From Escherichia phage BEBK14, in the sequence record MN158214.1: 50,853 bases of DNA; one strand, written 5' to 3'. Positions 336 through 49,790 of this stretch are shown one piece after another; position 1 is the first letter of the stretch, and each line of letters begins with the position of its first letter. The notes beneath the pieces are model-generated. The model was not told the origin of the DNA and made no database searches. It saw only the letters and a list, made by a program, of their open reading frames with translations. The translations under genes were made by a program, and so were the position numbers.

Positions 336-1454
336 TTATTTCTCTGCCATCTCAGGATAAAACATAAATCTTCCGATTTCGCCGTGTTCTTTGTCGTAAA
401 TGATAACCGCAGCACGGCGACGGGAACGCCAACCGCCTCGCGCGGCGTATGCGTCTTTAGCTGCCATCGTGCTATGTACTTCAACAATGCCGAGCGATGT
501 TTCTGTTACAGTCTGATGATGAAAATGCCCTACGTGCGCATACATCGTTTTTGAGTTGCCGAAGTCCTCCCGCCAGTCTGCCGCGCACATCATTAGCAAT
601 GTTTCCGGCTTGCGGACGGTGTGACCGTGATGATATGCAAGGAAGGTTTTTCCGTACTGCGTATGGTGAACCACTCGCGGCGATACATCAACGTAAACGC
701 GCGGCTCTTTTTCATATGCCGCCGCCATAGCTGCACGTAACCAGATCATGCCGCTTTGGTCATGGTTTCCCTCAATTATCTGGATCTCTACTTCTTTGTG
801 TTTTTTGAGCATCAACTCAATGGCACGACGGACGGCGCGGATTGCCACGTAAACCAATTTTGCGTATCGGCTATCTTGATCCAGGACGTGACCGCTTGCA
901 GGCGTTACTGCTTCCAGGCCGTCACTATGAAGCATGTCACCCCCAATCAGTAGCACAGCTTTCTCGCTGAACGGTGCACAGGCCACAGCATAATCGAAAA
1001 AGTCATTCATTACTTTCTCAGCCGTGGAAGTATCCCAATTCTCGCCGCATTCGTGTTTGTGCGCCATAGCTCCCAGGTGCATATCAAAAACGGGGTAAAG
1101 GGCAAGGCTTTCGCTGTATTCGCTCGCTTCTTCCGGTGTCGGATCTACTCGCGGCAATTCTTCGGTAAAAGCGTCCATAGCTGCACGCATCAACGCTTCC
1201 AGTTGCTCTTTGTCCTTACTGGTCTTTGTCCATTTGACGATCACGTTACCTTCTTTGTCGGTCATGACCGATTCACCGTGAACACCAAAACCAGGAGTTC
1301 CGATGGTTGATATTTTACCCTGTTTTGCCAGTCGTGCCGCTCGGCGCTCGACGCTACGAACGTTAAGGCCGTATTCCTCAGCAATCTGACGATAGCTCTT
1401 ACCCTTTAATCGCTCATGCGTGAATTGCTCGTCCGTTATCTTGCTCTGACTCAT
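336..1454 (-). CDS. HTH domain + calcineurin-like metallophosphoesterase
   Basis: N-terminal HTH-like segment (SYRQIAEEYGLNVRSVERR); metallophosphatase-like motifs GDMLHSDG, GNHD, HHGH in translation. Confidence 0.55.
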   Translation of the reverse strand: MSQSKITDEQFTHERLKGKSYRQIAEEYGLNVRSVERRAARLAKQGKISTIGTPGFGVHGESVMTDKEGNVIVKWTKTSKDKEQLEALMRAAMDAFTEELPRVDPTPEEASEYSESLALYPVFDMHLGAMAHKHECGENWDTSTAEKVMNDFFDYAVACAPFSEKAVLLIGGDMLHSDGLEAVTPASGHVLDQDSRYAKLVYVAIRAVRRAIELMLKKHKEVEIQIIEGNHDQSGMIWLRAAMAAAYEKEPRVYVDVSPRVVHHTQYGKTFLAYHHGHTVRKPETLLMMCAADWREDFGNSKTMYAHVGHFHHQTVTETSLGIVEVHSTMAAKDAYAARGGWRSRRRAAVIIYDKEHGEIGRFMFYPEMAEK

Positions 1455-5608: not shown

Positions 5609-6085
5609 ATGAAAGAAAAGCGAATCGCGGCCTATACTGGTGAGATTGACAAGAGAACATTGAACGGCAACAACGGAACGCGACGCGGCAAGGACAAGAA
5701 GCCACGCAAGCCGCGCACCGGATATTACATACTGAAAGAAGAAGTAAAAGCCGGACTGACCGCTCGCCTTGATATTCTTCTGGAGTATTTCGGAGGTGTG
5801 GCAAATATGGCTCGTCGATTGGGAGTATCCCAGCAAACTGTAAATATGTGGCGCAAGCGCGGGATGATTTCAGCGATGGGCGCACAACGCGTGCATAATG
5901 ACTACAAATATAATGGCTGTAAAGGCTATCGCGCATCATTCTGTCGCCCGGATCTAAAATTCGACTCAAACGGTAAGCCGCTTGTTACACGTTGCGAACG
6001 TCGTGAGATGTTGCGAGTGGTAACGATGCGCGATTATGAACCTGGCGGAATATTTTACAAAGAACCAAAAAGCACAAATAGCTAA
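5609..6085 (+). CDS. HTH DNA-binding protein (putative transcriptional regulator)
   Basis: ATG 5609 follows box copy and GAGGTG RBS; HTH-like segment GVANMARRLGVSQQTVNMWRKRG. Confidence 0.5.
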   Translation: MKEKRIAAYTGEIDKRTLNGNNGTRRGKDKKPRKPRTGYYILKEEVKAGLTARLDILLEYFGGVANMARRLGVSQQTVNMWRKRGMISAMGAQRVHNDYKYNGCKGYRASFCRPDLKFDSNGKPLVTRCERREMLRVVTMRDYEPGGIFYKEPKSTNS

Positions 6086-6142
6086 AGTTAATTGCCTGGC
6101 GTGGTTTATCATTGCCAGGCTTTTTCTTGTATGAGGTTTACA

Positions 6143-7054
6143 ATGCACTACGACAAAGACGAAGTTTTACCGCGTATGCTTGGAATGTGGCAAACTGCAT
6201 TAATGAAACTATGCAATGCGCCTCAATCTTTCTTTAATGGCAAGCATCAACCGTGCCTGTATTGTGGTGGCAAAGATCGCGCTCGTTGGACTAACCAACT
6301 CGCAAAGAAAGGTGATGGCGGCAATATCTGCAACGTATGCGGTAACGATAGCGGGATCGGGTTGTTTATGCGATTGCGCGGGGAAAGCTATAGCGAAGCA
6401 ATTAACACGCTGGGCGACTGGCTCAATCTCGTTCCGGTCGAAGTGGTGGCAAAGGCTAACAAGATAGCGTCGCGCTCGTCAGGCTACAATTTCGGGAAGC
6501 AGGCCAGCCATGAATGCTGTGAAAGAGTAATGGCAAAGACGCTTAAATTTGATCGCACTCCTTTAAGCGTATTTGAAGGAATCTACCCGCCTGATGATGG
6601 TCATTACGATTGCGGCGTTAAGGATGGGCGATACATTCACGCGCTTCCGTGCCGACTTGTTCACGAAGACGGCGTGGATGATGAGATGTGCAATATTCTC
6701 TTTATCACCGAGGAAGGCGATAAATCATTTCTGGCAAAGGATTACACGCGCGGATCGGTTGTTGTAACTGGTAGCACAGATAAGACGATCTATTTGTGCA
6801 CTGACTGGGTAAATGCTCAGCATGTGCACCTTGCGACGGGGCAAGAAGTATGGACGTGCTACAATAACTACAATCTTGAGATGGTTGCCCACAGATACAA
6901 AGGAAATCGAAAGATGCGCGTCGTATGCCATAAAGATGATCGGGATGTAATAATCGCCGCCGATGAAAGAAACCTTGATGTTATGCTGCCGATTGGTGGA
7001 AACTTCAAAAATGGCATTGAGAAAAAACTTTACAAGCCTGAATCGCTTTTATAA
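6143..7054 (+). CDS. DNA primase (primase Zn-ribbon + Toprim-like)
   Basis: PCLYCGGKDRARWT...CNVCGN zinc ribbon typical of P4/T7-type primases; downstream acidic Toprim-like motifs; GAGG RBS before ATG 6143. Confidence 0.6.
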   Translation: MHYDKDEVLPRMLGMWQTALMKLCNAPQSFFNGKHQPCLYCGGKDRARWTNQLAKKGDGGNICNVCGNDSGIGLFMRLRGESYSEAINTLGDWLNLVPVEVVAKANKIASRSSGYNFGKQASHECCERVMAKTLKFDRTPLSVFEGIYPPDDGHYDCGVKDGRYIHALPCRLVHEDGVDDEMCNILFITEEGDKSFLAKDYTRGSVVVTGSTDKTIYLCTDWVNAQHVHLATGQEVWTCYNNYNLEMVAHRYKGNRKMRVVCHKDDRDVIIAADERNLDVMLPIGGNFKNGIEKKLYKPESLL

Positions 7055-7118: not shown

Positions 7119-7149
7119 GCCTGCAAAACTGCTATTCTCAATGTTGTCA

Positions 7150-7166
7150 TTAGCAAAAAGTGCTAT
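7150..7166 (-). promoter_or_regulatory. 17-bp box copy (variant TTAGCA; no -10 partner)
   Basis: between terminator 7095..7118 and RBS/ATG of fibre gene; orientation opposite to flanking genes. Confidence 0.35.
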
Positions 7167-7183: not shown

Positions 7184-9145
7184 ATGGCAATTTATCGCAA
7201 AGGTCAAGCGTCAATGGACGCTCAAGGCTATATAACTGGCTACGGGACGAACTGGCGTGAGCAGTTAACGCTGATCCGTTCCGGCGCAACCATTATTTTT
7301 CTGACTCAGCCGCTACAGGCCGCAGTTATCACCGAAGTGGTCAACGATACTAGCATTCGAGCAATCACCACTGGTGGTGCTGTTGTTCCCCGTTCAGACT
7401 ACATAATCTTGCTTCATGACTCGTTAACTGTTGATGGCCTGGCGCAAGACGTAGCGGAAACATTGCGCTACTACATGGGGAAAGAGTCGGAGCTTGCTGG
7501 ATTTATTGAGATCATCAAGGATTTTGATTGGGATAAGTTACAGAAGATCCAAGAAGACGTAAAGACAAATGCTGACGCAGCAGCAGCAAGCCAGCAGGCA
7601 GCTAAAACCAGCGAGAATAACGCGAAGACAAGCGCAACAAATGCAGCGAATAGCAAGAAAGGCGCTGATACTGCAAAGGCTGCCGCTGAATCCGCGCGCG
7701 ACGCTGCAAACACTGCAAAGACTGGCGCTGAAGCAGCAAAGTCTGGCGCTGAATCCGCGCGTGACGCTGCGAACACTGCAAAGGCAGGAGCTGAAAGTGC
7801 GCGAGATCAAGCGGAGGAATACGCAAAGCAGGCCGCAGAACCTTACAAGGACTTATTGCAACCGTTGCCGGACGTGTGGATACCATTTAATGATTCCCTG
7901 GATATGATTACCGGATTCTCGCCGTCATACAAAAAGATTGTCATAGGTGATGATGAGATCACGATGCCAGGTGACAAGATTGTTAAGTTTAAACGTGCAT
8001 CAACCGCTACTTACATTAACAAATCAGGTGTTTTTACAGTTGCAGCAATTGATGAACCACGTTTTGAAAGAGATGGATTGCTGATTGAAGGGCAGAGAAC
8101 AAACCATATGATTAATGCTTCAACTCCTGCTGGTTGGGGTCGCTCAGCTTCTGTGCAAGTGACAGCGAATACAGATTCATTTGGATTTCTTTATGGTCGC
8201 TTCGCTCCAGATCAGTCTACTGTTGGCAAAACAGATGCGCTAAACCTTGCATCTGTTATTTCTAATCACAGCCTTGATACATCTGGCAATGAAAAAAATG
8301 TTACTGCTTCATGCAGATTTAGATCAGATAAAGATGTTAGATTGAGGGTAAGATTTGCCGCTGGCGATGATATTGGTAGTATAGCATTCGCTGGAGATGC
8401 TTACATAAAACTTAAAGATCTTTCAGTTCAAAAAACTGGAGGTGCTGCAAACAGAATTAATGTTGAGGTTTACACTGATGATCTTGCTGGATGGAATATT
8501 GCAATTGTTACATTCCAGGCAATAAAAAATAAGGTAAACGCTCAGTTTCAAATATCTCCAGTCTCTGCTTATGCCGAAGGTGATTATCTTGAATTGTCAA
8601 CCCCTCAAGTTGAATTGGGATCTGGTGCTTCTTCTTATATTCAATCAGGTACGACACCAGCCACAAGGGCAAGCGATATGGTTACAGTGCCAATAAAAAA
8701 CAACCTTTACAATTTGCCGTTTACAGTTCTTGTGGAGGCTCATAAAAACTGGAGTAGAACGCCAAATGCTGCGCCTCGTGTTTTCGATACTGGAGGTCAT
8801 CAATCTGGTGCGGGAATTATTCTTGCTTTCGGGTCTGCCGAAGGCGATGCTGATGGATTCCCTTATTGCGATATAGGTAAATCAAACAGAAGGGTTAACG
8901 AGAATGCGAAACTAAAAAAGATGATCATAGGAATGAGAGTAAAGAGTGATTACAATACTTGTTGTGTAAGTAATGCCAGAATATCAAGCGAAACAAAAAC
9001 GGAATGGAGATATATAGTATCAACGGCTACTATAAGGATTGGCGGACAAACAAGTACAGGCGAACGCCATCTTTTCGGGCACGTTAGAAACTTCCGTATA
9101 TGGCACAAGGCGCTAACAGATCATCAATTGGGGGAAATTGTTTAA
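7184..9145 (+). CDS. tail fibre protein
   Basis: Ala/Lys-rich coiled-coil repeats (AESARDAANTAK x2) followed by large beta-rich C-terminal domain. Confidence 0.55.
   Translation: MAIYRKGQASMDAQGYITGYGTNWREQLTLIRSGATIIFLTQPLQAAVITEVVNDTSIRAITTGGAVVPRSDYIILLHDSLTVDGLAQDVAETLRYYMGKESELAGFIEIIKDFDWDKLQKIQEDVKTNADAAAASQQAAKTSENNAKTSATNAANSKKGADTAKAAAESARDAANTAKTGAEAAKSGAESARDAANTAKAGAESARDQAEEYAKQAAEPYKDLLQPLPDVWIPFNDSLDMITGFSPSYKKIVIGDDEITMPGDKIVKFKRASTATYINKSGVFTVAAIDEPRFERDGLLIEGQRTNHMINASTPAGWGRSASVQVTANTDSFGFLYGRFAPDQSTVGKTDALNLASVISNHSLDTSGNEKNVTASCRFRSDKDVRLRVRFAAGDDIGSIAFAGDAYIKLKDLSVQKTGGAANRINVEVYTDDLAGWNIAIVTFQAIKNKVNAQFQISPVSAYAEGDYLELSTPQVELGSGASSYIQSGTTPATRASDMVTVPIKNNLYNLPFTVLVEAHKNWSRTPNAAPRVFDTGGHQSGAGIILAFGSAEGDADGFPYCDIGKSNRRVNENAKLKKMIIGMRVKSDYNTCCVSNARISSETKTEWRYIVSTATIRIGGQTSTGERHLFGHVRNFRIWHKALTDHQLGEIV
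7685..7783. repeat. 63-bp period direct repeat inside tail-fibre gene
   Basis: GCTGAATCCGCGCG(C/T)GACGCTGC(A/G)AACACTGCAAAG at 7685..7720 and 7748..7783. Confidence 0.7.
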
Positions 9146-11381: not shown

Positions 11382-12443
11382 TTAAATCAGATACTGCTTG
11401 AACTGTCGGCGCACAAATTCAGGCGTATCCAAGCAAACTTCCGGCTCACCGTTTGCATACGCAGGCCATACGTCATGATGCTGGCACATAGCAAACTGTT
11501 GGATCACGCTAACATACTGGACTCGGCCTATCTTCAATTGCTCGCTGTTCATGCGGAAAGCCAACGGCAAATAAGGCTCTTTCTTCTCCTGGGCTAACAG
11601 GCGCATAACTACAGGGCGCTTCTCGTCTGGATATGCCTTCCTGAATAAATCATGTTGCAGCGCCATTTTCAGATAATAGCCGTGGTTGTAAGCCAGTCGC
11701 ATAAACTCCATCGGATTTGCGCTCATTGTGGTTTTGTAGTCAGTTATAACAACCGCTTCTGGATAGATAATATCGCGGCAAATTGGCTGACCTTTTTCGT
11801 CATAACCATCAATTAGCGTGGCGGTGACGTTTTTCACTACGTCAACGTGATCACATCGAACTTTAACTTTTACGCCGTTGATTTCGCCGAATAACGACAA
11901 TTCACGCTGTGCCGTCGGGCTGTTCATGCAGGCGTTATGTTCCGGTATGGATTCCAGAACCTGGCGCATTGCCACGCAAGCATCGTAATCTTTCGCGTCG
12001 ATTAACTGTACGCCGTCGGCTCTGGCCTGGCTTTCTGCGATCATGTCGATTAACCACATGATGTTAAGGTCTTCGCCACAATCAACCATCATTTTGATAA
12101 GGTCGGGGTAAGCCTTTCCGCTTGTCCCTTTCAGGCCAAAAGATTTCAGCTTTGCAGCCAATGCCGTTTGGCTTGTGATCAACTCTTTGAAGTCTTCCGG
12201 CGCTGGCGCACGGCGGTAAGTTTTATCAAATAGCTCCTTGCTTTCGAAGTTGGTATGCGACTGCGTACCGAAAACGAGCGCCTTGCTCTTATCGTCGCGC
12301 GGCTTGAACTTCCACGCAGCAGGGCAAGTGCTGTAAATCTCTGCCAGACTTGAACCGCTAACATATTCAGCCGTCCATGCTTCTGGATCGTGATAAAGCT
12401 CGTTGCTCATTTCTGCGCTGGTGTAAGCCATAAATTTATTCAT
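11382..12443 (-). CDS. putative recombination exonuclease
   Basis: 353-aa ORF in recombination module next to Erf; GAGGG RBS; family assignment is inferred from context. Confidence 0.4.
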   Translation of the reverse strand: MNKFMAYTSAEMSNELYHDPEAWTAEYVSGSSLAEIYSTCPAAWKFKPRDDKSKALVFGTQSHTNFESKELFDKTYRRAPAPEDFKELITSQTALAAKLKSFGLKGTSGKAYPDLIKMMVDCGEDLNIMWLIDMIAESQARADGVQLIDAKDYDACVAMRQVLESIPEHNACMNSPTAQRELSLFGEINGVKVKVRCDHVDVVKNVTATLIDGYDEKGQPICRDIIYPEAVVITDYKTTMSANPMEFMRLAYNHGYYLKMALQHDLFRKAYPDEKRPVVMRLLAQEKKEPYLPLAFRMNSEQLKIGRVQYVSVIQQFAMCQHHDVWPAYANGEPEVCLDTPEFVRRQFKQYLI

Positions 12444-12560
12444 GATTAGCCCTCATTGGTTGGTATGCCTGCATTTTAGCTATTTGATGCGTTTAGTCAA
12501 TAGGTGATTTGTTTTTTCTGTTTTCTAAACGCTTCTTTTGGGCTTAAGAACAAAATCTGA

Positions 12561-12790
12561 TTATAAGTGATTGAATATCAGGTTGTTATTTTTCTGTTCT
12601 CGCGTTCGCGTATCTGCTCAGCTTTATACATACATATGCAATACACAGTGAGCATCTGTAATTACATAAATCAATACACTCACCAAACATGCTACACACC
12701 ACAACCCAATGAAACACAGAGAACAAATAAAAACAAATATAGATACATAGATAAATAAACTCTTTATTTTTTATGTATATAGATGATTTT
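12561..12790. other. AT-rich divergent control region A with GTTCGCG repeats and poly-purine/AT block
   Basis: no ORFs; TTATAAGTG...GTTATTTT...GTTCTCGCGTTCGCG and ATACATAGATAAATAAACTCTTTATTTT blocks homologous to 43022..43350. Confidence 0.55.
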
Positions 12791-12880
12791 ACTGTCTATT
12801 GTTTGTCCAATTTGTGTTTAAGTTTTGCGCTAAAATTAAGGAGGTGTGAATTTGATAACAAGCGAGAACAGAAAAAACAA

Positions 12881-12897
12881 ATAGCACTTTTTGCTAA
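12881..12897 (+). promoter_or_regulatory. 17-bp box copy (variant TTGCTAA)
   Basis: TATAGT at 12918..12923, 20 bp downstream; precedes lipoprotein gene. Confidence 0.5.
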
Positions 12898-12954
12898 ACT
12901 CGATGTTCAAGATCTTGTATAGTTGGAAACAACAACAACTAAGGAGATACAAAG

Positions 12955-13224
12955 ATGAAAAAATTAATCGCAGTTATCGCCACCGTAGCCGCTCTGACCG
13001 GATGCGCAGCGTCGCCTACTGGCAGCTTCAAAAAGATCGATTGCACGGCAAAATTTAACGTTAAAACATTCCCTGTTAACGGATTCCATGAAGTCAAAAT
13101 TAATGCAGTACGCGAAAACAGATTCAGCCAAAAGCAATACAGGTTGAGCGTTGACAATAAAGAAGTTAAATTTATCAACCGCTGGCAAAATGAAAGTAAA
13201 TTTATTGATTTGAGGTGTAATTAA
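12955..13224 (+). CDS. lipoprotein, possible Cor-like superinfection exclusion protein
   Basis: signal peptide + lipobox LTGC; 89 aa; sits beside tail-fibre/J region as cor does in T1-like phages. Confidence 0.45.
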   Translation: MKKLIAVIATVAALTGCAASPTGSFKKIDCTAKFNVKTFPVNGFHEVKINAVRENRFSQKQYRLSVDNKEVKFINRWQNESKFIDLRCN

Positions 13225-13502
13225 TGGCGCAATATGGTTATGCAATATATGACGATCGAGGAAGGGAAGTTACAGGACTTTTAACGCCTGTTTTCTTTCT
13301 TGATAAATTCACTCAGCCATCAGGTAGCAAGACTTACCAAAACAGGCCGCCAGGTAAATCATTGAAAGCAATATATGTTGGCATGAATTCCTGGCGTGGT
13401 GGCGACCCTGGCGCACCAAACTTATCGGTAAGTGGCGACACCGTTACATGGAGTGGGCTTTCTGGATCTGATTCAAGATATATATATACTTTTTGGGGGT
13501 GA
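13224..13502 (+). CDS. hypothetical protein
   Basis: ORF translationally coupled to neighbours (ATGG/TGATG overlaps). Confidence 0.4.
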   Translation: MAQYGYAIYDDRGREVTGLLTPVFFLDKFTQPSGSKTYQNRPPGKSLKAIYVGMNSWRGGDPGAPNLSVSGDTVTWSGLSGSDSRYIYTFWG

Positions 13503-23907: not shown

Positions 23908-23924
23908 ATAGCATTTTTTGTTAA
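23908..23924 (+). promoter_or_regulatory. 17-bp box copy
   Basis: between major-tail terminator and G-like gene RBS; TAGATT 22 bp away on plus strand (antisense to late genes). Confidence 0.35.
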
Positions 23925-23967
23925 AAGTCTGAATGACTTGTTTGATAGATTCTACAGGAACGAAAAA

Positions 23968-27656: not shown

Positions 27657-27673
27657 ATAGCACTTTTTGTTAA
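27657..27673 (+). promoter_or_regulatory. 17-bp box copy
   Basis: upstream of capsid-gene hairpin/RBS; TATTCA 22 bp away on plus strand. Confidence 0.35.
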
Positions 27674-27700
27674 AGGTGCAAATCTATTTTGTGGTATTCA

Positions 27701-28543
27701 TTAAGTGCCTACTGTTTTCCTGAACACTATGTCAAACTGATCAGCAACTCCAGAACCGTCGTTTGCAGTCCAGTTAACATTAACATGACCACCTACTCCA
27801 GTAGGAACTACAAGACCAGTGCGACTAACGCTTGCAACCTTTGGATCTTGCTCGTTTGTAATCGTCCACTGCCCCGTTTTGTCGTCAGCCCATGTTGGAA
27901 CAACGGTTACTTTTAGCTGAACGTTGTCAATTGTTTCTGTTCCCTCTACATAACCATTTTCGGCCTCAATGATCGCACCAGTAAGAAGGTATTTTCTATG
28001 ATGAAGCGGCGTTATTCTGACTCCGACTATGTTCATTGTTTCATCAAACTTGTAAAAGTCACCAGTAAAAATCCAGCCATCGACGATTTCATCCCCATCA
28101 CTACTTGCTACAAAGCCATCATTGTTAACATAAACAAGATCGCCATGTTCAGGCGCAGACTCAATCGTTTGAGTTAAGCACCATACAACCCCTCTTGTTA
28201 AAATGTTGATAGAATCTCCTTCCTTATAGTCAGAGTATCCGTCTTCCTCGTTAACCGTTGTCGTGATATTGCTCCTTATGGCAACACCAGCAACCACAGC
28301 ATCACCCTCTTTGTGATCAACAAATATGTTGTAACCTTCAACTCTTTCTTTAAAGAAAACAACCTTTCCAGCAATGATGGATTCAGAACCGCAAACTCCA
28401 ACTCTTTCTTTAAAGAAAACAACCTTTCCAGCAATGATGGATTCAGAACCGCAAACTCCAGTGCCATCAATGTTGTAGCGAGTAGAATCAACCAGGCATC
28501 CAGGACAGGAAAGCCCCATAACAGATGAGTAATCTTTAGCCAT
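27701..28543 (-). CDS. structural (head decoration-like) protein with C-terminal Ig-like domain
   Basis: N-terminus paralogous to 28595..29104; Ig-like C-terminal segment; contains 60-bp tandem duplication. Confidence 0.5.
   Translation of the reverse strand: MAKDYSSVMGLSCPGCLVDSTRYNIDGTGVCGSESIIAGKVVFFKERVGVCGSESIIAGKVVFFKERVEGYNIFVDHKEGDAVVAGVAIRSNITTTVNEEDGYSDYKEGDSINILTRGVVWCLTQTIESAPEHGDLVYVNNDGFVASSDGDEIVDGWIFTGDFYKFDETMNIVGVRITPLHHRKYLLTGAIIEAENGYVEGTETIDNVQLKVTVVPTWADDKTGQWTITNEQDPKVASVSRTGLVVPTGVGGHVNVNWTANDGSGVADQFDIVFRKTVGT
28341..28460. repeat. perfect 60-bp tandem duplication (2 copies), in-frame within 27701..28543
   Basis: 28341..28400 identical to 28401..28460; duplicates 20 aa GVCGSESIIAGKVVFFKERV. 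Confidence 0.9.
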
Positions 28544-29120: not shown

Positions 29121-30233
29121 TTATTTCAGTTTAGCAAAGCGAGCGTTTGGATTAAGAGGCTTGTCTTCGTCTTCCTTATTGGAACAGAAAGAGTCACCCT
29201 TAACTGCTTGTCTCTGCGCTGCCATTTTATCAGAAGTCTTCGCAATATCGAAAGCGGTTTCGATGTAAGCGTCAGCCTTGTCTGATACGTCCGCACCAGT
29301 AACCTCTTTGATGTAAGCAACTTTGATTGCTTTTGCGTCCAGGCCGTCGCACTTGATGCCAATCTCTGTAGCGTCAGCAACAAGCGCGGCGTGCGCTTCT
29401 GCGTCAGCTTTGGCCTGCTTCACAGCTTCTTCAATCTTAGCCGGAATGCCATCAACCTTAGCCTGCAATGCGTCGCGCTCTGCCTCAAGTGATGCAGCCT
29501 TGTCTTTCTCAGCTTTGGCATCAGCTTTCAGGTTGTCAATGTGCGCAGCAACTTCTTTCGGCACATCAAATTCTACAGCTCCATCAAGTTTAATTTTAAC
29601 GTTCATTTTTTCATCCTCTTTGTTTGAAATATCCTCGTCACTATACGGAAAATCTTGCTCACTATCAAGGTTTAGTTTAGCGACTCCGGCACGACCACGG
29701 AAAACTAGCGCGATATGATTAACTCTGATGTTCGTCTGAATGGCATCGAACTTAACCCAATCAGGAGAATCCGGTTTCCAATCTTCTTTCATATCTTCTT
29801 CAAAGATATATTCTCCTGTTTGATTATTTCCCCAGCCTGGCTTATCAATATCAACGGAAGTGTAACCCACAGAGATTTCCGCAGTGGCGCGCTTCTTCGC
29901 GCTGTCAATCGCGCGTTTAGAGTAAATGCTTAACGGCACTTCTACCCCGATCCCGTTTGGAACGCCAGCGCCAGCACAGGAACCAACAACCACTTTTTCC
30001 GCGTTCTCAGGCGTGACGGTAACATGCCCGATAGTGATCGGCTTGCCTGCGAACGTCTCCAGGGAGTCGGCCTTGAATACCTCTGACGCTGGGCGAAATT
30101 CACGTCGAACGCCGAAAGGAGTTTGGTACTCCTGCAAACCGATACGCGCCACAATTGGGCGATCCACTAAAAATCCGTTATCGTCAAAGTGCGCTTTGAC
30201 GCGCACACTATCAAACCTTTGTTTTGCCTTCAT
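29121..30233 (-). CDS. prohead protease / scaffolding protein
   Basis: N-terminal domain resembling DUF2213-type prohead proteases, C-terminal Ala/Lys-rich coiled coil. Confidence 0.55.
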   Translation of the reverse strand: MKAKQRFDSVRVKAHFDDNGFLVDRPIVARIGLQEYQTPFGVRREFRPASEVFKADSLETFAGKPITIGHVTVTPENAEKVVVGSCAGAGVPNGIGVEVPLSIYSKRAIDSAKKRATAEISVGYTSVDIDKPGWGNNQTGEYIFEEDMKEDWKPDSPDWVKFDAIQTNIRVNHIALVFRGRAGVAKLNLDSEQDFPYSDEDISNKEDEKMNVKIKLDGAVEFDVPKEVAAHIDNLKADAKAEKDKAASLEAERDALQAKVDGIPAKIEEAVKQAKADAEAHAALVADATEIGIKCDGLDAKAIKVAYIKEVTGADVSDKADAYIETAFDIAKTSDKMAAQRQAVKGDSFCSNKEDEDKPLNPNARFAKLK

Positions 30234-36780: not shown

Positions 36781-36837
36781 GTTCCGGCCTCCTCTGTTGT
36801 CGATGCGCATATAATACAAAACCAGCCGAAGCTGGTT

Positions 36838-36854
36838 TTAACAAAAAGTGCTAT
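36838..36854 (-). promoter_or_regulatory. 17-bp box copy
   Basis: contains TAG stop of 36851..37147; hairpin 36821..36836 then TATTAT 36811..36816. Confidence 0.5.
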
Positions 36855-38120: not shown

Positions 38121-38178
38121 TGTTGATTCCTATGTTTACTGAACGGGGTAAATTATAGCGGAGCATTGCGCCCCGCGT

Positions 38179-38195
38179 TTAGCAATTCGTGCTAT
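38179..38195 (-). promoter_or_regulatory. 17-bp box copy (variant CGAATTGCTAA)
   Basis: contains TAG stop of kinase gene; TATAAT at 38152..38157, 21 bp downstream. Confidence 0.5.
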
Positions 38196-40731: not shown

Positions 40732-40787
40732 AGTTTTATCTCCTTCGTTGAAAGTGAGGCCATTATACCTGGCCCCACATTTGAGTT

Positions 40788-40804
40788 TTAACAATTCGTG
40801 CTAT
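40788..40804 (-). promoter_or_regulatory. 17-bp box copy (variant CGAATTGTTAA)
   Basis: abuts TAA stop of 40805..41770; TATAAT at 40761..40766, 21 bp downstream. Confidence 0.5.
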
Positions 40805-42528: not shown

Positions 42529-42990
42529 TCATTTCTCCTCGTTAACAAGATTGCGGATCATTTCCTGGTAGCGGCTTATTCCTTCGCAAGCTCCAGCCAG
42601 TTTATCGCCTTGCATATCGGTAACGTTTGGCATTGATGCAAGAATGCGAGCGGCGAACTTTTCTACCGCCTTTGCCTGGACGGCTGGCAAGTCTTCGCTC
42701 GTGATCACCTTGCGCTTAACGTCGCGATTCAGGCTGAAAACGTAAAACTTATCGTCTTCCGTTTCTTCCGTTCTGATTCGCACCTTTCCAACCGCTTTCA
42801 CTTCCGGCACGCGGTTGATTATTGTGCGGCTGTATGCCTGATTCTTTGTCACCTTGTAGTAGTCGTCGCCGTTTAACATTCCGGCAAGGTCGAGAACTGA
42901 CATTTTATGCTCTACAATCTCGCCGCTTGCAAGGCGTCGACCAAGCTCTCGCAACCAGTCGCAATAGTCTTTCGATGTTTTCTGACTCAT
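42529..42990 (-). CDS. hypothetical protein
   Basis: AGGAGG RBS; first gene of leftward early transcript from divergent region. Confidence 0.45.
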   Translation of the reverse strand: MSQKTSKDYCDWLRELGRRLASGEIVEHKMSVLDLAGMLNGDDYYKVTKNQAYSRTIINRVPEVKAVGKVRIRTEETEDDKFYVFSLNRDVKRKVITSEDLPAVQAKAVEKFAARILASMPNVTDMQGDKLAGACEGISRYQEMIRNLVNEEK

Positions 42991-43021
42991 TGTCATTCCT
43001 CCTGTTGGTCAGTTGCAGGCC

Positions 43022-43430
43022 ATTATAAGTGCTATTTTATGCGTGTCAATGTTTATTTTGTCCGTATAACGTTCGCGTCCTGTTCGCGTTGCCGAAGTTT
43101 TGAGAGAATCACTACATAACCACATGATTTGCAATAAGTTTTTACCGCTTGTTTTCTTTCTGTTCGCGCTGTTAGCGCAATATCGCAATAAAAGTATATA
43201 TACATACTCATTCCACCAGGCGCGCAACTATCCATATATATACCAACAAAGCGACACCGCAACCATCACATACCACACTAACAACGCTAACAAGAAATAA
43301 CACATAAATATATACATAAATAAATATTCTTTATTTTCAATGTATTATAAGGGATTTATTTTGTTTTTTGCGTTCGCAATACATTGAAAAACAGCGCGGA
43401 AACATGTCGCCCTGAAACGCGAACACGCAC
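43022..43430. other. AT-rich divergent control region B with GTTCGCG repeats (possible origin/operator region)
   Basis: GTTCGCG at 43071, 43082, 43162; CGCGAAC at 43418; ATACATAAATAAATATTCTTTATTTT block; no convincing ORF over ~720 bp. Confidence 0.55.
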
Positions 43431-43643
43431 GAACAAAATAAACAGCTTCTGTTTGCTGACGCCACCAGGACGAGGCGAGAGGGCAACTACTTTCTATACA
43501 CCCCGCCCCACATGATTAATCACATACGCAATCAATCGAAAAACCTGGTAAACGCATATCACACTAACCAATTTAACAGTTAAGCAACTTATTCCGATTA
43601 TTCTTTGAGCGTGGAATAACTGGAATAATGCACCAGGCATGGA

Positions 43644-43660
43644 ATAGCACTTTTTGTTAA
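43644..43660 (+). promoter_or_regulatory. 17-bp box copy
   Basis: TACATT 43682..43687, 21 bp downstream, then ACACACATCGAAAC; precedes first rightward early gene. Confidence 0.55.
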
Positions 43661-43722
43661 AACCGAATCATTCTGATCGGGTACATTACACACATCGAAA
43701 CAAACCGCTCAGGAGATAGCAA

Positions 43723-43995
43723 ATGAACATCAGTAAAACCACTTTCAATTTCGCTAAGCGTCACGGTCTGGATCTGACTGTTGAGAACTTAGGCGATGTT
43801 CTGCAACTCTGCATTTGGGAAGCAGATAACGATTGCGAGTGGCTTTGCTCTTATCGTATCAACTACGATTGCTTGACCTGGCACGGCAATATCTATCTGC
43901 CGCAAGAGGTGAAAGAAGAATTGCCAGCGACTATCAACAACGAAGTTTTCTTGCGCCGGGTGCTGAAATTTATCAGTGAGGAGATCAAGAAGTAA
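43723..43995 (+). CDS. hypothetical protein
   Basis: first gene of rightward early operon; GGAG RBS. Confidence 0.45.
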   Translation: MNISKTTFNFAKRHGLDLTVENLGDVLQLCIWEADNDCEWLCSYRINYDCLTWHGNIYLPQEVKEELPATINNEVFLRRVLKFISEEIKK

Positions 43996-45950: not shown

Positions 45951-46655
45951 ATGTATAAAGGTTTAATATTCTCCCTATTTGATGGGTCTGGTAAAGCCGT
46001 TAAAGATTGGGCTGATAATGGCTATAAGTGCATTTGCTTTAATGCTGACGGTGGCGATCACGGTGATTACCAGTCAGTGCGCATAAAGCATGAGAATATC
46101 GAATATGTTAACGTCTGGATTGACGATGCTTTTTATGTTAAGGCAATAAATAATGAGTGGGGCAATCCTGATTTTATTATGGCCTTCCCACCATGCACTG
46201 ACCTTGCAAATAGCGGATCTCGCCATTGGGCTAAAAAACGCCTTGAGAATCCATCGTTCCAGGATGATGCCGCCGACACTTGCAGAATCGCGGCTGATAT
46301 AGCTGATTATTTCGGTGTTCCTTACATGATCGAAAATCCGGTTGGCAAGTTGTCAACGTTATGGCGAAAGCCTGATTATACGTTCCATCCGTGCGATTAC
46401 GCTGGCTATCTGCCGGAAGATGATAAGCATCCAGACTTCCCTGATATTATTCCGGCGCGTGATTGCTACTTTAAGAAAACATGCCTTTGGACTGGAAACG
46501 GCTTTATCGTTCCACAGAGAAAACTGGTATTGCCAACCGAGAAGGATAACCCAGGCTGGGCTAAAACTGGTGGCAAATCATCCAGAACAAAGATGATACG
46601 CTCCCTCACTCCGCGAGGATTTGCTCGCGCCGTATTTGAGGCAAACTCAAAATAG
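45951..46655 (+). CDS. putative DNA (cytosine-5) methyltransferase-like protein
   Basis: motif I-like FSLFDGSG, PC motif (PPCTDL), ENV-like (IENPVG); short for a complete C5-MTase. Confidence 0.45.
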   Translation: MYKGLIFSLFDGSGKAVKDWADNGYKCICFNADGGDHGDYQSVRIKHENIEYVNVWIDDAFYVKAINNEWGNPDFIMAFPPCTDLANSGSRHWAKKRLENPSFQDDAADTCRIAADIADYFGVPYMIENPVGKLSTLWRKPDYTFHPCDYAGYLPEDDKHPDFPDIIPARDCYFKKTCLWTGNGFIVPQRKLVLPTEKDNPGWAKTGGKSSRTKMIRSLTPRGFARAVFEANSK

Positions 46656-46668
46656 CACTTTTTGTTAA
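46652..46668 (+). promoter_or_regulatory. 17-bp box copy (extended form)
   Basis: contains TAG stop of MTase-like gene; hairpin 46672..46690, CATAAT, GTTTCAACGAAAAC. Confidence 0.55.
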
Positions 46669-46727
46669 AACGCCCGACCTTGAGTCGGGCATAATGCGTT
46701 TCAACGAAAACAACTGGAGAAAATCAA

Positions 46728-47399: not shown

Positions 47400-48983
47400 A
47401 TGAATTTTTCATTTGAAACAAGTCAGTTATCACCGAAACAAATCATTGAAACCGCCGAATCTCAAGGTATTTCCCCTGTTCGTGTATCCATTCAGGCCAA
47501 CGGATACCGCCAATCTTCAAGCTATTGGGGTCAGGTGGAAGATATTAACGGCGGTAACGACCGCTACCCTGTCATTTCACTTGGGAATGATGTTGATGTA
47601 GTTGGTAAGCTGGCGCGCAATCTTGCGAGATCTGTTCAATTCCCTGAATCATCGGCCTACATGCACTTTATCGGATGTATTTCTGCCGCTATGCTTGGTC
47701 GATTCACAGTTGACTACCACGGAACAGATCAGCCGACCGCGCTTTACGTTGTGACAAGCCAGCCTCCGTCGGCAGGTAAATCCGCGATTAACAGTCTGGC
47801 TATTGCTCCTATGGTTGCAGAGGTTGATCGCATCAACGAGCAACGCAAGAAAGATCGAAAAAAGATACAGGCAAAACTTGCCGGACTACTAAAGGAGATG
47901 AAAAGCGAACGCTCCGGCGCAGATATGGAGATTCTATATCAAGAAAAAGAAGATCTGGAAGAAAAACTAAGCAAACTTTGCGATGTTGTTTTCCCTGTTT
48001 CCGACACAACGCCTGAGGGATTGGCAAAGATAAATAACAGGCAAGGCAACTTCGCGGTTATTTCTGATGAAGCAACCAGTATTAACAGTCTGCTTGGTCT
48101 GACTTACGCTAATAGCGAGCGCAAAACTAACAGCGAACTTGTGTTAAAAGCATGGGATCACGGCCATGTTTCTATCGCCCGTTCTAATGCAGACAATAAC
48201 ATGAGTTTTTTTGCGCTTGGATGTATGAGTGTTATCGCCCAGGATGAAACCATTAATGGCATCATGGATGCAGGATCTCGTGGCATCGGTGTAAGCGAGC
48301 GTTTTCTACTGGTGCGCGAACAGCCGTTAATCGGTACGCGTGTATTTGTGGATGAGAATGGTGATTCAACTTACGAACCAGTAGACGGTGAATTGAAAGC
48401 GCAATACTTTCAGTTGGTGCATAACATTATGAGCGAAATTAACGTTTCTCTGAAAGTTAGCCGTTCTGCAATGCGCGTGCTGAACATTGCACGCCAGGAT
48501 ATGGAACCGCATCTTGCCGACGGCGGAAAGTATTCGCATACGATGCTACGCGGTGCGCTGGGTAAAATGGATAAGCAGGTGATCCGCATTGCTGCCGTTC
48601 TGCATGTGATACGCAATTGGTTTAATCCTGCTGGATACCCGCAAAAGTCTAGAGAGATTGACGTTGACACGATGCAAGAAGCCTTGCTGATGTTCCATGA
48701 ATTGAGCAAAACGTATATCAGCGCGGCGAACGCGTCAGGCTATGCTGGTGATGATGCCGAGATGTCAAAACTGATTGAGTTAATCACCCGCCACGGTAAG
48801 GCAAATAAAGGCGTATTGAATGTCCGCGCTTTGTATGAGGCAGCACGCAAGGTAAAACCTTTCCTGGGGCAAGCTGGCGTGATGAAGCGCATAGAATCGC
48901 AACTGCTTCCGATGCTTGAGCAAAAAAACTACGTTTGTGTTATTAATGGTGTTATTTTTGTGAATCCTGTGTTAATGGGGTAA
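47400..48983 (+). CDS. P-loop NTPase, DUF3987/YfjI-like
   Basis: Walker A-like QPPSAGKS and Walker B-like VISDE; 527 aa. Confidence 0.45.
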   Translation: MNFSFETSQLSPKQIIETAESQGISPVRVSIQANGYRQSSSYWGQVEDINGGNDRYPVISLGNDVDVVGKLARNLARSVQFPESSAYMHFIGCISAAMLGRFTVDYHGTDQPTALYVVTSQPPSAGKSAINSLAIAPMVAEVDRINEQRKKDRKKIQAKLAGLLKEMKSERSGADMEILYQEKEDLEEKLSKLCDVVFPVSDTTPEGLAKINNRQGNFAVISDEATSINSLLGLTYANSERKTNSELVLKAWDHGHVSIARSNADNNMSFFALGCMSVIAQDETINGIMDAGSRGIGVSERFLLVREQPLIGTRVFVDENGDSTYEPVDGELKAQYFQLVHNIMSEINVSLKVSRSAMRVLNIARQDMEPHLADGGKYSHTMLRGALGKMDKQVIRIAAVLHVIRNWFNPAGYPQKSREIDVDTMQEALLMFHELSKTYISAANASGYAGDDAEMSKLIELITRHGKANKGVLNVRALYEAARKVKPFLGQAGVMKRIESQLLPMLEQKNYVCVINGVIFVNPVLMG

Positions 48984-49378: not shown

Positions 49379-49499
49379 TGATTTCATTCATGCGTTACTT
49401 ACGCTGCTTTTATCGGATATGCGTGCCTTTGACACTTCCGAACACAATTTATGTGATGATGATGGTGTCTTGCTGGTTACGGTGAAGCGGATGGAATAG
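49305..49499 (+). CDS. hypothetical protein
   Basis: AGGAGA RBS; stop TAG inside box copy. Confidence 0.3.
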   Translation: MMNSLEQSLIDKILKFCAVNSISHDDFIHALLTLLLSDMRAFDTSEHNLCDDDGVLLVTVKRME

Positions 49500-49512
49500 C
49501 ACTTTTTGTTAA
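49496..49512 (+). promoter_or_regulatory. 17-bp box copy (extended form)
   Basis: contains TAG stop; hairpin 49516..49534, TATATT, GTTTCATCGAAACGAA. Confidence 0.55.
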
Positions 49513-49571
49513 AACGCCCGGCTTATAGTCGGGTATATTTGTTTCATCGAAACGAATATGAGGAAAACAAA

Positions 49572-49790
49572 ATGAGCAACAAATTTTTTACCGTGGCGCT
49601 GATTATCAAACATGAAAACGGCACTACCACTGAGATCCCTACAAAATTCCCAGCCGACTCCTGGACTCACGAGCAAGCTGTCGGATATGTTGAGGAAATG
49701 GCTAAACGCGTAATGGCTGGTCATTATGATATTGAATTTCAGGAAAACCAGAAGCTAACAAATCATTCACACGAATGGCCTGATGCTTAA
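49572..49790 (+). CDS. hypothetical protein
   Basis: GAGGAAA RBS; followed by terminator. Confidence 0.4.
   Translation: MSNKFFTVALIIKHENGTTTEIPTKFPADSWTHEQAVGYVEEMAKRVMAGHYDIEFQENQKLTNHSHEWPDA

Follow-up and report, generated by a model that had tools for sequence, protein, structure and literature searches.

Escherichia phage BEBK14 (sequence record MN158214.1; 50,853 nucleotides, all of it analysed and called the window below) carries two noncoding regions from which genes diverge, region A (12444-12954) and region B (42997-43722). As judged by sequence comparison, the two gaps are true homologues: each holds a copy of one module of about 320 bp, duplicated and kept as a pair across the family of T1-like phages. 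We put at roughly 45% the probability that these modules are a pair of iteron-type replication origins, or an origin with a cis-acting partner, set between early promoters, and their features make them the best candidates at hand for the replication origins of T1-type phages, which have yet to be mapped. We favor this reading because both flanks carry phased, inward-facing boxes, relatives have integration host factor (IHF) sites, and the enclosed DNA is the most meltable of the genome; the strand-asymmetric and structure-free arms, the presence of two copies in every genome, and an encoded primase and MCM-like helicase that need a loading site argue in the same direction.

A module shared by two divergent regions

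Smith-Waterman alignment of region A with region B gave a score of 49, against 12.6 ± 1.5 for dinucleotide shuffles (maximum, 19; n = 300) and 27 for the reverse-complement control, with the best local path pairing 12583-12802 with 43149-43371. This local alignment bears out the claim of an earlier note, made from the letters of this DNA alone, that the two regions share blocks. The strings quoted there are all present in A (TTATAAGTG at 12561-12569, GTTATTTT at 12585-12592, GTTCTCGCGTTCGCG at 12596-12610, and an AT block at about 12743-12783) and have counterparts in B (TTATAAGTG at 43024-43032, GTTTATTTT at 43050-43058, and an AT block at about 43312-43351). A counterpart of 12560-12610 does exist in B, but its best partner is 43133-43177 rather than 43024-43088. 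Likewise, the homologous core is real, but part of the matched sequence is ordinary promoter material, namely sigma-70 hexamers and a known 21-nt repeat.

When 11 modules from other phages were used to build an nhmmer profile (model length, 326; the window was left out), exactly two significant matches appeared in the window, both on the plus strand and nearly full length:

12565-12891, plus strand: module A (E = 4e-34; model positions 9-323 of 326)
43150-43456, plus strand: module B (E = 2.6e-26; model positions 29-323 of 326)

The profile also detects the module in held-out distant relatives in which the neighbor protein is 45-72% identical (our records L013, L024-L026, L033, and L055-57). 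Six other Tempevirinae genomes show the same pairing: within a contig, the A-type gap, upstream of the exonuclease gene, can be aligned with the B-type gap, upstream of the 90-amino-acid gene, the score being 32-74, compared with about 13 ± 1.5. The modules of phage T1 are more diverged and barely alignable; they score 35 against 14 ± 1.7, chiefly through the TA-rich centre. A blastn search with the module returned 155 places in 111 phage records, all T1-like and many with two places, and a blastn search of plasmids with the module returned no match. The alignments, the profile, and the relatives agree with the earlier proposal of duplicated regions: the divergent gaps are homologous and conserved as a pair.

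The left two-thirds of module A (12565-12790) is about 69-70% identical to region B of tunus-, swan01-, and SECphi27-type phages. It is closer to region B of those phages than to their region A, which suggests past exchange or gene conversion between the copies.

Megablast of 12200-13300 matched Escherichia phage Jahat_MG145 at 99.8% identity over the whole query and about 110 further T1-like phages (Drexlerviridae; Tempevirinae, Warwickvirus) at 83% identity or less. These matches indicate that the 50,853-bp window is an essentially complete, circularly permuted T1-like genome. The two modules sit at two nodes of transcription divergence, and T1-like phages carry exactly two; for region A, the divergence had been described in the earlier note and agrees with the strands of its neighbors. 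The regions and their neighbors are as follows:

12444-12954: region A, between the exonuclease VIII homologue and lipobox protein genes
11382-12443, minus strand: exonuclease VIII homologue, left neighbor of region A
12955-13224, plus strand: small lipobox protein, right neighbor of region A
42997-43722: region B, between the DUF7174 gene and the 90-amino-acid gene
42529-42996, minus strand: DUF7174 gene, left neighbor of region B
43723-43995, plus strand: 90-amino-acid gene, right neighbor of region B

Small open reading frames in the region A gap (12567-12758; short coding sequences of the MatMar record) were rejected, as they are not kept in haarsle-type sequences. Elsewhere, within coding DNA, the window has a tandem duplication at 28333-28452 (2 x 60 nt, 97% identity) and another at 7655-7780, within a 661-amino-acid tail-fibre-like gene (2 x 63 nt, 86% identity).

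Anatomy and physical properties of the modules

A fixed anatomy is common to A and B. On the plus strand, leftward promoter(s) and two tandem boxes come first; an A/C-rich arm and then a G/T-rich arm follow, with an AT-rich palindromic centre between them, and inverted tandem boxes and the 21-nt repeat close the series. The generic module, of about 320 bp, begins with two tandem TGTT(C/A)NC(G) boxes on the plus strand and an A/C-rich arm of about 70-100 bp that includes one inverted box, continues with a partly palindromic centre of about 50-80 bp (about 85% AT), and ends with a G/T-rich arm and two to three tandem boxes on the minus strand. Outward-facing promoters bracket the whole module, a canonical sigma-70 promoter leftward and a T1-type 21-nt-repeat promoter rightward. 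The arms are conserved in composition, not in sequence. In region A, the parts are as follows:

12594-12610, plus strand: left box pair, CTGTTCTCGC plus GTTCGCG
12589-12603: left arm of a 15-bp perfect inverted repeat, TTTTTCTGTTCTCGC / GCGAGAACAGAAAAA, that brackets the core; the arms pair in folds
12670-12739, plus strand: A/C-rich arm (A+C, 0.72; G, 0.09), the plus strand being almost without G and T
12717-12726: internal inverted box, CAGAGAACAA, near the end of the A/C-rich arm
12731-12781: AT-rich centre, an imperfect palindrome, ATACATAGATAAATAAA-ctc-TTTATTTTTTATGTAT
12784-12830, plus strand: G/T-rich arm (G+T, 0.65; C, 0.09)
12854-12876, minus strand: right tandem box pair, CTGTTCTCGC TTGTTATC on the minus strand, containing the right arm of the 15-bp inverted repeat

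The central hairpin of A forms in folds of both strands. The corresponding parts of region B are as follows:

43071-43088, plus strand: extra GTTCGCG pair (spacing, 11 bp), outside the profile-defined module
43160-43177, plus strand: left tandem box pair, CTGTTCGCG CTGTTAGCG, period 9
43205-43305, plus strand: A/C-rich arm (A+C, 0.73)
43284-43293: internal inverted box, ACGCTAACAA, within the A/C-rich arm
43301-43351: AT-rich centre, overlapping the left arm of the inverted repeat listed next
43335-43346 and 43378-43389: arms TTTCAATGTATT and AATACATTGAAA of an inverted repeat annotated in the Jahat_MG145 record
43418-43435, minus strand: right box pair, TGTTCGTGC GTGTTCGCG on the minus strand

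Region B of four relatives (L025, L033, L055, and L018) has an extra GC-containing palindrome in the A/C-rich arm, about -470 to -420 before the gene (examples are ATGGGGGGTATCCCCAT and pairs of ATACCCAT/ATGGGTAT); the window is without it.

The earlier note had named GTTCGCG as the repeat common to both regions. This heptamer lies in B at 43071, 43082, and 43162 on the plus strand and at 43418 on the minus strand, and 5 of its 10 copies fall in the 1.2 kb of A plus B, but it is not enriched genome-wide (10 copies against 8.9 ± 3.2 expected). We therefore replaced it with a broader box, TGTT[ACG]NC, of which GTTCGCG is one variant. This box occurs 71 times in 14 Tempevirinae regions, against about 12.5 expected, and it keeps its place and orientation with respect to the AT-rich centre (on the plus strand, about -160 to -135; on the minus strand, about -35 to -10 and +85 to +125). 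Strict tandem pairs of the box (TGTTVNC; same strand, 8-11 bp apart) occur only twice in 50.8 kb, at 12854-12876 in A and at 43160-43177 in B (shuffle mean, 0.27). Tandem pairs on both flanks lie 9-10 bp apart, the helical-turn spacing of iteron origins. The suggestion that the regions contain iterons is thus upheld to the extent that both have repeated short boxes in an iteron-like layout.

The AT-rich centres are the least stable DNA of the genome. By nearest-neighbour energies, the least stable 50-bp duplex is the centre of B (43301-43351; -48.7 kcal/mol) and the second is the centre of A (12731-12781; -49.3 kcal/mol). The next stretch is at -53.4, the genome mean is -68.9 (standard deviation, 4.6), and both centres lie more than 4 standard deviations from that mean; windows of 80 bp give the same ranking. 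In T1, regions B and A again hold the two least stable 80-bp stretches, at 210-290 and 29999-30079, respectively, which deviate from the mean by more than 5 standard deviations. Both centres correspond to the AT-rich DNA-unwinding element that adjoins the repeats of iteron origins, and the earlier idea of candidate origins holds on its physical side, with the lowest duplex stability of the genome falling in these centres here and in T1.

A conserved block, TAAGTNATTGAT, lies left of the tandem boxes and holds a strict IHF consensus on the minus strand in relatives. With WATCAANNNNTTR as the consensus, relatives had 16 strict sites in a count across 16 regions, against 1.4 expected, at conserved positions; at the block of the promoter-like site P2 (see below), relatives carry TATCAATCACTTA on the minus strand. 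The IHF-like sites proposed earlier are therefore strict and conserved in relatives, but the window has only a one-mismatch site, TAAGTGATTGAAT at 12564-12576.

Flanking promoters, the region B insert, and competing explanations

The modules are bracketed by the following sites:

12500..12473, minus strand: leftward sigma-70-type promoter P1 of A, TTGACT-16-TAAAAT (10/12), reading into the exonuclease/Erf operon
12589..12560, minus strand: promoter-like site P2 of A, ATAACA-18-TATAAT, overlapping the IHF-like site 12564-12576
43049..43022, minus strand: leftward sigma-70 promoter of B, TTGACA-16-TATAAT, the sole 12/12 consensus match in the genome
12879-12923, plus strand: rightward promoter of A, with the 21-nt repeat AAATAGCACTTTTTGCTAAAC at 12879-12899 and a -10-like TATAGT at 12918-12923
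43642-43662, plus strand: functional-looking 21-nt repeat promoter of B
43440-43460, plus strand: decayed 21-nt repeat of B, AAACAGCTTCTGTTTGCTGAC (14/21 positions), at the site of A's intact repeat

The sigma-70 hexamers are conserved in relatives and mark predicted promoters. Those of P1 are conserved in a nine-phage alignment; P2 is weaker than P1, and its hexamers are poorly conserved. The TTATAAGTG string at 43024 in B is the -10 hexamer (TATAAT, minus strand) of the perfect sigma-70 promoter. Upstream of P1 lies an A-rich stretch (12507-12525 in plus-strand numbering) similar to the one that precedes the rightward promoter. As a main function of the AT-rich centre, internal promoters were rejected: only -10-like hexamers without a -35 are found there, and they are not consistently conserved.

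The third block shared by A and B (12879-12899 and 43642-43662) is the known T1-type 21-nt repeat, described in the TLS paper as an intergenic aaATAGCACnnnTTGnTAAAA that shares the direction of the downstream gene and precedes its start codon by about 76 nt (PMC11447400). The copies in regions A and B are canonical: they have 0 mismatches to aaATAGCACnnnTTGnTAAAA (12881-12898 and 43644-43661), lie about 60-76 nt upstream of the start codon, and are oriented with transcription. This repeat accounts for the rightmost shared block only, and the module of about 320 bp to its left is unmentioned in that paper (PMC11447400). The genome has 19 copies of the repeat, ATAGCACnnnTTGnTAAA, against 0.6 expected (for example, 36837-36854, 38178-38195, 40787-40804, and 46652-46669), and most of them (6069 and 7149 are among the exceptions) precede a good -10 hexamer, TATAAT, CATAAT, TATTAT, or TATAGT. 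In the four copies counted, the -10 lies 21-23 nt past TTGnTA, so the TTG element is not a properly spaced -35, and the repeat has the look of an activator box situated at about -30 to -50. This spacing bears on the question about 21-nt repeats raised in PMC11447400. The spacer between repeat and -10 often contains a GC hairpin or a GATC site.

In their pairing of a good -10 with a conserved element instead of a properly spaced -35, the 21-nt-repeat promoters are like the MotA-dependent middle promoters of phage T4. They differ in that this phage is without a MotA/AsiA homologue, and the likeness is one of the flanking promoters that does not extend to the module core.

Three copies of the 21-nt repeat oppose the surrounding genes: 7149-7166 (minus strand), 23908-23925 (plus strand), and 27657-27674 (plus strand). 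These may be antisense promoters or have another role; in the TLS paper, all intergenic copies point with transcription (PMC11447400). Two arms of an 80-nt inverted repeat, 1964-2043 and 49495-49574, are 88% complementary and 47 kb apart. They include the 21-nt repeat, a GC hairpin, the -10, and a leader, indicating that whole promoter-leader cassettes have been duplicated before different genes.

The main rival to a replication role is purely transcriptional control through the flanking promoters, which the boxes directly abut. On this account, which is unlikely on balance and deserves to be taken seriously, the regions are duplicated early-gene control units in which a regulator, for example the Cro/YdaS-like protein of 5609-6085, would use the TGTT boxes as operators or activator sites; the regulator would coordinate the divergent sigma-70 and 21-nt-repeat promoters, and the AT-rich centre and IHF would serve bending, looping, or insulation. 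The strongest canonical promoters of the genome do lie here (12/12 at 43049..43022 and two of 10/12 in A), box arrays abut promoters on both sides, and the A-rich stretch GA(G/A)AACAGAAAAAACAAAT is common to P1 of A and the rightward promoter. The 21-nt repeat is also promoter-associated genome-wide (19 copies), and the phage encodes a Cro-like helix-turn-helix protein. However, the approximately 250 bp of conserved architecture between the promoters, with asymmetric arms and the least stable duplex, exceed what promoter control needs, and the other 17 copies of the 21-nt-repeat promoter are without such a module. In B, moreover, the right box array is kept even though an insert of about 180 bp and the decayed repeat part it from the working promoter. 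Tandem direct repeats at 9-11 bp are also unusual for Cro-type dimers.

That insert is a feature of region B:

43461-43640: B-specific insert of about 180 bp, absent from A, outside the shared module, and a gap in alignments

Within it, TTATTCC/GATTATTC (43589-43603) faces two GGAATAA (43613-43628), a pattern conserved in relatives and T1. In T1, the equivalent of region B runs across the record ends and includes position 1, the start of an annotated 2.8-kb repeat region (terminal redundancy). There, the 21-nt repeat at the right end of module B is intact, as is the second one, and position 1 maps between them. As this start of the terminal redundancy maps into the equivalent insert, 43461-43640 is a candidate pac (packaging) site, or small-terminase binding region.

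These record ends might instead point to the modules themselves as terminase (pac) recognition regions or as Erf/RecE hot spots, with the boxes on either side of a zone of cleavage or pairing, like that of P1 pac. Both T1 position 1 and the start of the Jahat_MG145 record (window position 43363) fall in region B, and this untranslated region is reported to contain the pac site (PMC7718038). Region A adjoins recombination genes, and the A and B copies show signs of sequence exchange. Nevertheless, we regard such a role of the shared module as improbable, since the T1 end, insofar as record coordinates reflect the real end, maps to the right of the module in an insert that A lacks; the insert is the better pac candidate. 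The Jahat_MG145 start is probably an arbitrary or reference-based choice. To our knowledge, only one pac site has been reported for T1-type headful packaging.

An RNA-gene reading and a selfish-element reading find little support. The first, in which the module would be transcribed into an A/C-rich (or G/U-rich) regulatory RNA, such as a sponge for Hfq or another RNA-binding protein, could draw on the long strand-asymmetric A/C-rich stretch and on folding energies below those of shuffles. However, the folding z-scores (-3.1 to -3.7) are equal on both strands in each module, as expected from DNA inverted repeats, and this argues for dyad symmetry at the DNA level and against a strand-specific RNA. 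The composition-only conservation of the arms is likewise at odds with an RNA gene, and the flanking promoters face outward. The modules yielded neither a terminator nor a conserved inward promoter, and Rfam gave no match in the whole window at the gathering threshold, with only a spurious hit (E = 0.28) in the two regions at E ≤ 1. We consider this reading quite improbable. Least probable of all is a selfish or neutral duplication, either a miniature inverted-repeat transposable element with terminal inverted repeats or a functionless relic of segmental duplication: a perfect 15-bp inverted repeat does bracket module A and there are two copies per genome, but every genome examined has exactly two syntenic copies and none elsewhere in the genome or in plasmids, both are kept across subfamilies to neighbor-protein identities of about 45-60% and in T1, and the retention of architecture and physical properties while sequence drifts indicates selection.

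Candidate replication origins and known systems

According to two genome papers, neither an origin nor iterons could be identified in T1-like phages (PMC11447400, PMC7718038), the TLS paper reporting no iteron-like repeats (PMC11447400). Within the literature available to us, a search for transcription-start, origin, or footprint data on T1-like phages likewise found none. Phage T1 belongs to Delbrück's set of seven T phages, and members of the Drexlerviridae are frequent contaminants in laboratories and industry as well as candidates for therapy.

If the modules are replication origins, a phage protein would bind the phased boxes on both flanks; the winged helix of a DUF3987 MCM-like helicase is a candidate, and a P4-alpha-like primase or the Cro-like protein of 5609-6085 possibly joins in, but the identity of the box-binding protein is a guess. 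IHF would bend the DNA, the AT-rich centre would then open, and loading and priming would take place on the unstructured A/C-only strand. Transcriptional activation by the adjacent early promoters may aid opening, and the same boxes may also tune these promoters, so that origin and control functions are not exclusive. The proteins concerned are as follows:

6092-7054, plus strand: primase (Pfam Zn_Ribbon_Prim; phmmer match to P4 alpha residues 13-248, E = 4e-10)
47400-48983, plus strand: DUF3987 MCM-like AAA+ helicase (Pfam E = 2.8e-40), candidate box-binding initiator/helicase
5609-6085: Cro/YdaS-like helix-turn-helix protein

A PDB sequence search gave no match for the primase or the DUF3987 helicase and only weak Cro/XRE matches for the helix-turn-helix protein. 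An AlphaFold model of the DUF3987 protein (predicted local distance difference test score, 84.9) has an AAA+ core followed by a C-terminal winged helix (residues about 450-527) of the order helix-strand-helix-helix-strand-strand, and its top Foldseek matches are MCM2-7 subunits. This winged helix is generic and sits on a protein separate from the primase. DUF3987 proteins have been described as MCM-related superfamily 6 (SF6) replicative helicases with a winged helix-turn-helix at the C terminus, usually partnered with a primase (Kazlauskas et al., PMC4889955). Region B is 3.7 kb upstream of the DUF3987 gene, which follows a 21-nt-repeat promoter of its own (47329). A 372-amino-acid protein (336-1454, minus strand) has a sub-threshold N-terminal helix-turn-helix like sigma-70 region 4 (22.8 bits; cut-off, 25.7) and might likewise be a DNA-binding protein that recognizes the repeats or boxes.

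Several points weigh against an origin function. The boxes are short, degenerate, and only two to three per flank, and their arrays lie directly upstream of outward promoters, where activator or UP sites would sit. TGTTMNCG is enriched genome-wide (36 copies against 13.8 ± 3.7), so that composition or codon usage may supply part of the signal, and some of the enrichment statistics rest on mononucleotide shuffles. Box flavor shows no consistent A-B co-variation within genomes, being suggestive in two and discordant in another. The strict IHF consensus was not found in A or B of the window. Cumulative GC skew, which the earlier note had proposed as a check, has its minimum near B, at 43-44 kb, but it follows the coding strand everywhere and so says nothing on origins. 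AT-rich divergent promoter regions are also common without being origins.

Whichever function it has, this conserved, twice-per-genome module offers a precise target of about 320 bp for origin mapping, for DUF3987 helicase binding studies, and for engineering, for instance of replication-defective phages or of vectors whose amplification depends on the phage. The module is also set apart here from the neighboring pac candidate and from the 21-nt repeat promoters, which are themselves enigmatic.

The closest comparison is with the satellite phage P4, whose record annotates 16 'ori type 1 repeats', TGTTCACC or near variants and often after C, in ori and crr; we take TGTTCACC to be the type I iteron bound by the alpha primase-helicase. 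In tandem, the P4 repeats are spaced at 9-11 bp, and they occur in both orientations; in ori, an AT-rich stretch separates the arrays. Like P4, T1-type phages have two separate cis regions per genome; in both, the 8-bp boxes begin TGTTC or TGTTA, commonly after C, and show 9-11-bp tandem spacing in both orientations flanking an AT-rich stretch, and the phage primase is homologous to the alpha primase domain. In the relative L020, the left side carries CTGTTCACG CTGTTAACG and the right side TGTTCACC; exact TGTTCACC and TGTTCACG both occur in it. The window, in contrast, has TGTTCGCG, TGTTCTCG, and TGTTAGCG, which are identical to TGTTCACC at 5-6 of 8 positions, more degenerate, and fewer per array. 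Furthermore, the modules lie 30 kb apart between divergent promoters, and the binding of their boxes is a prediction. The single-protein initiator of P4 (primase, superfamily 3 [SF3] helicase, and winged helix) has no equivalent here: only the primase domain is homologous, phmmer found no P4 alpha helicase (SF3) or C-terminal origin-binding domain among the open reading frames of the window, and the helicase is the separate MCM-like DUF3987 protein.

By this analogy, the two modules might form a cooperating origin and enhancer, as in P4 ori/crr, read by the winged helix of the MCM-like (DUF3987, SF6) protein with a separate P4-alpha-type primase. This more specific proposal is doubtful. If true, it would provide the first defined bacterial-virus origin for this widespread DUF3987 helicase family and identify the replication origins of classical phage T1.

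More broadly, the modules resemble origins that combine iterons, a DNA-unwinding element, and IHF sites, such as those of pSC101, R6K gamma, and lambda, and the two origins oriL and oriR of the Bacillus phage SPP1. Like these, they have phased short repeats beside the most easily melted DNA, with the IHF consensus in relatives, and as in the SPP1-type arrangement, the element is duplicated within one pac-type siphovirus genome. They differ in having boxes on both flanks that point inward, not one array; in the strong strand asymmetry of their A/C and G/T arms; and in having no adjacent initiator gene.

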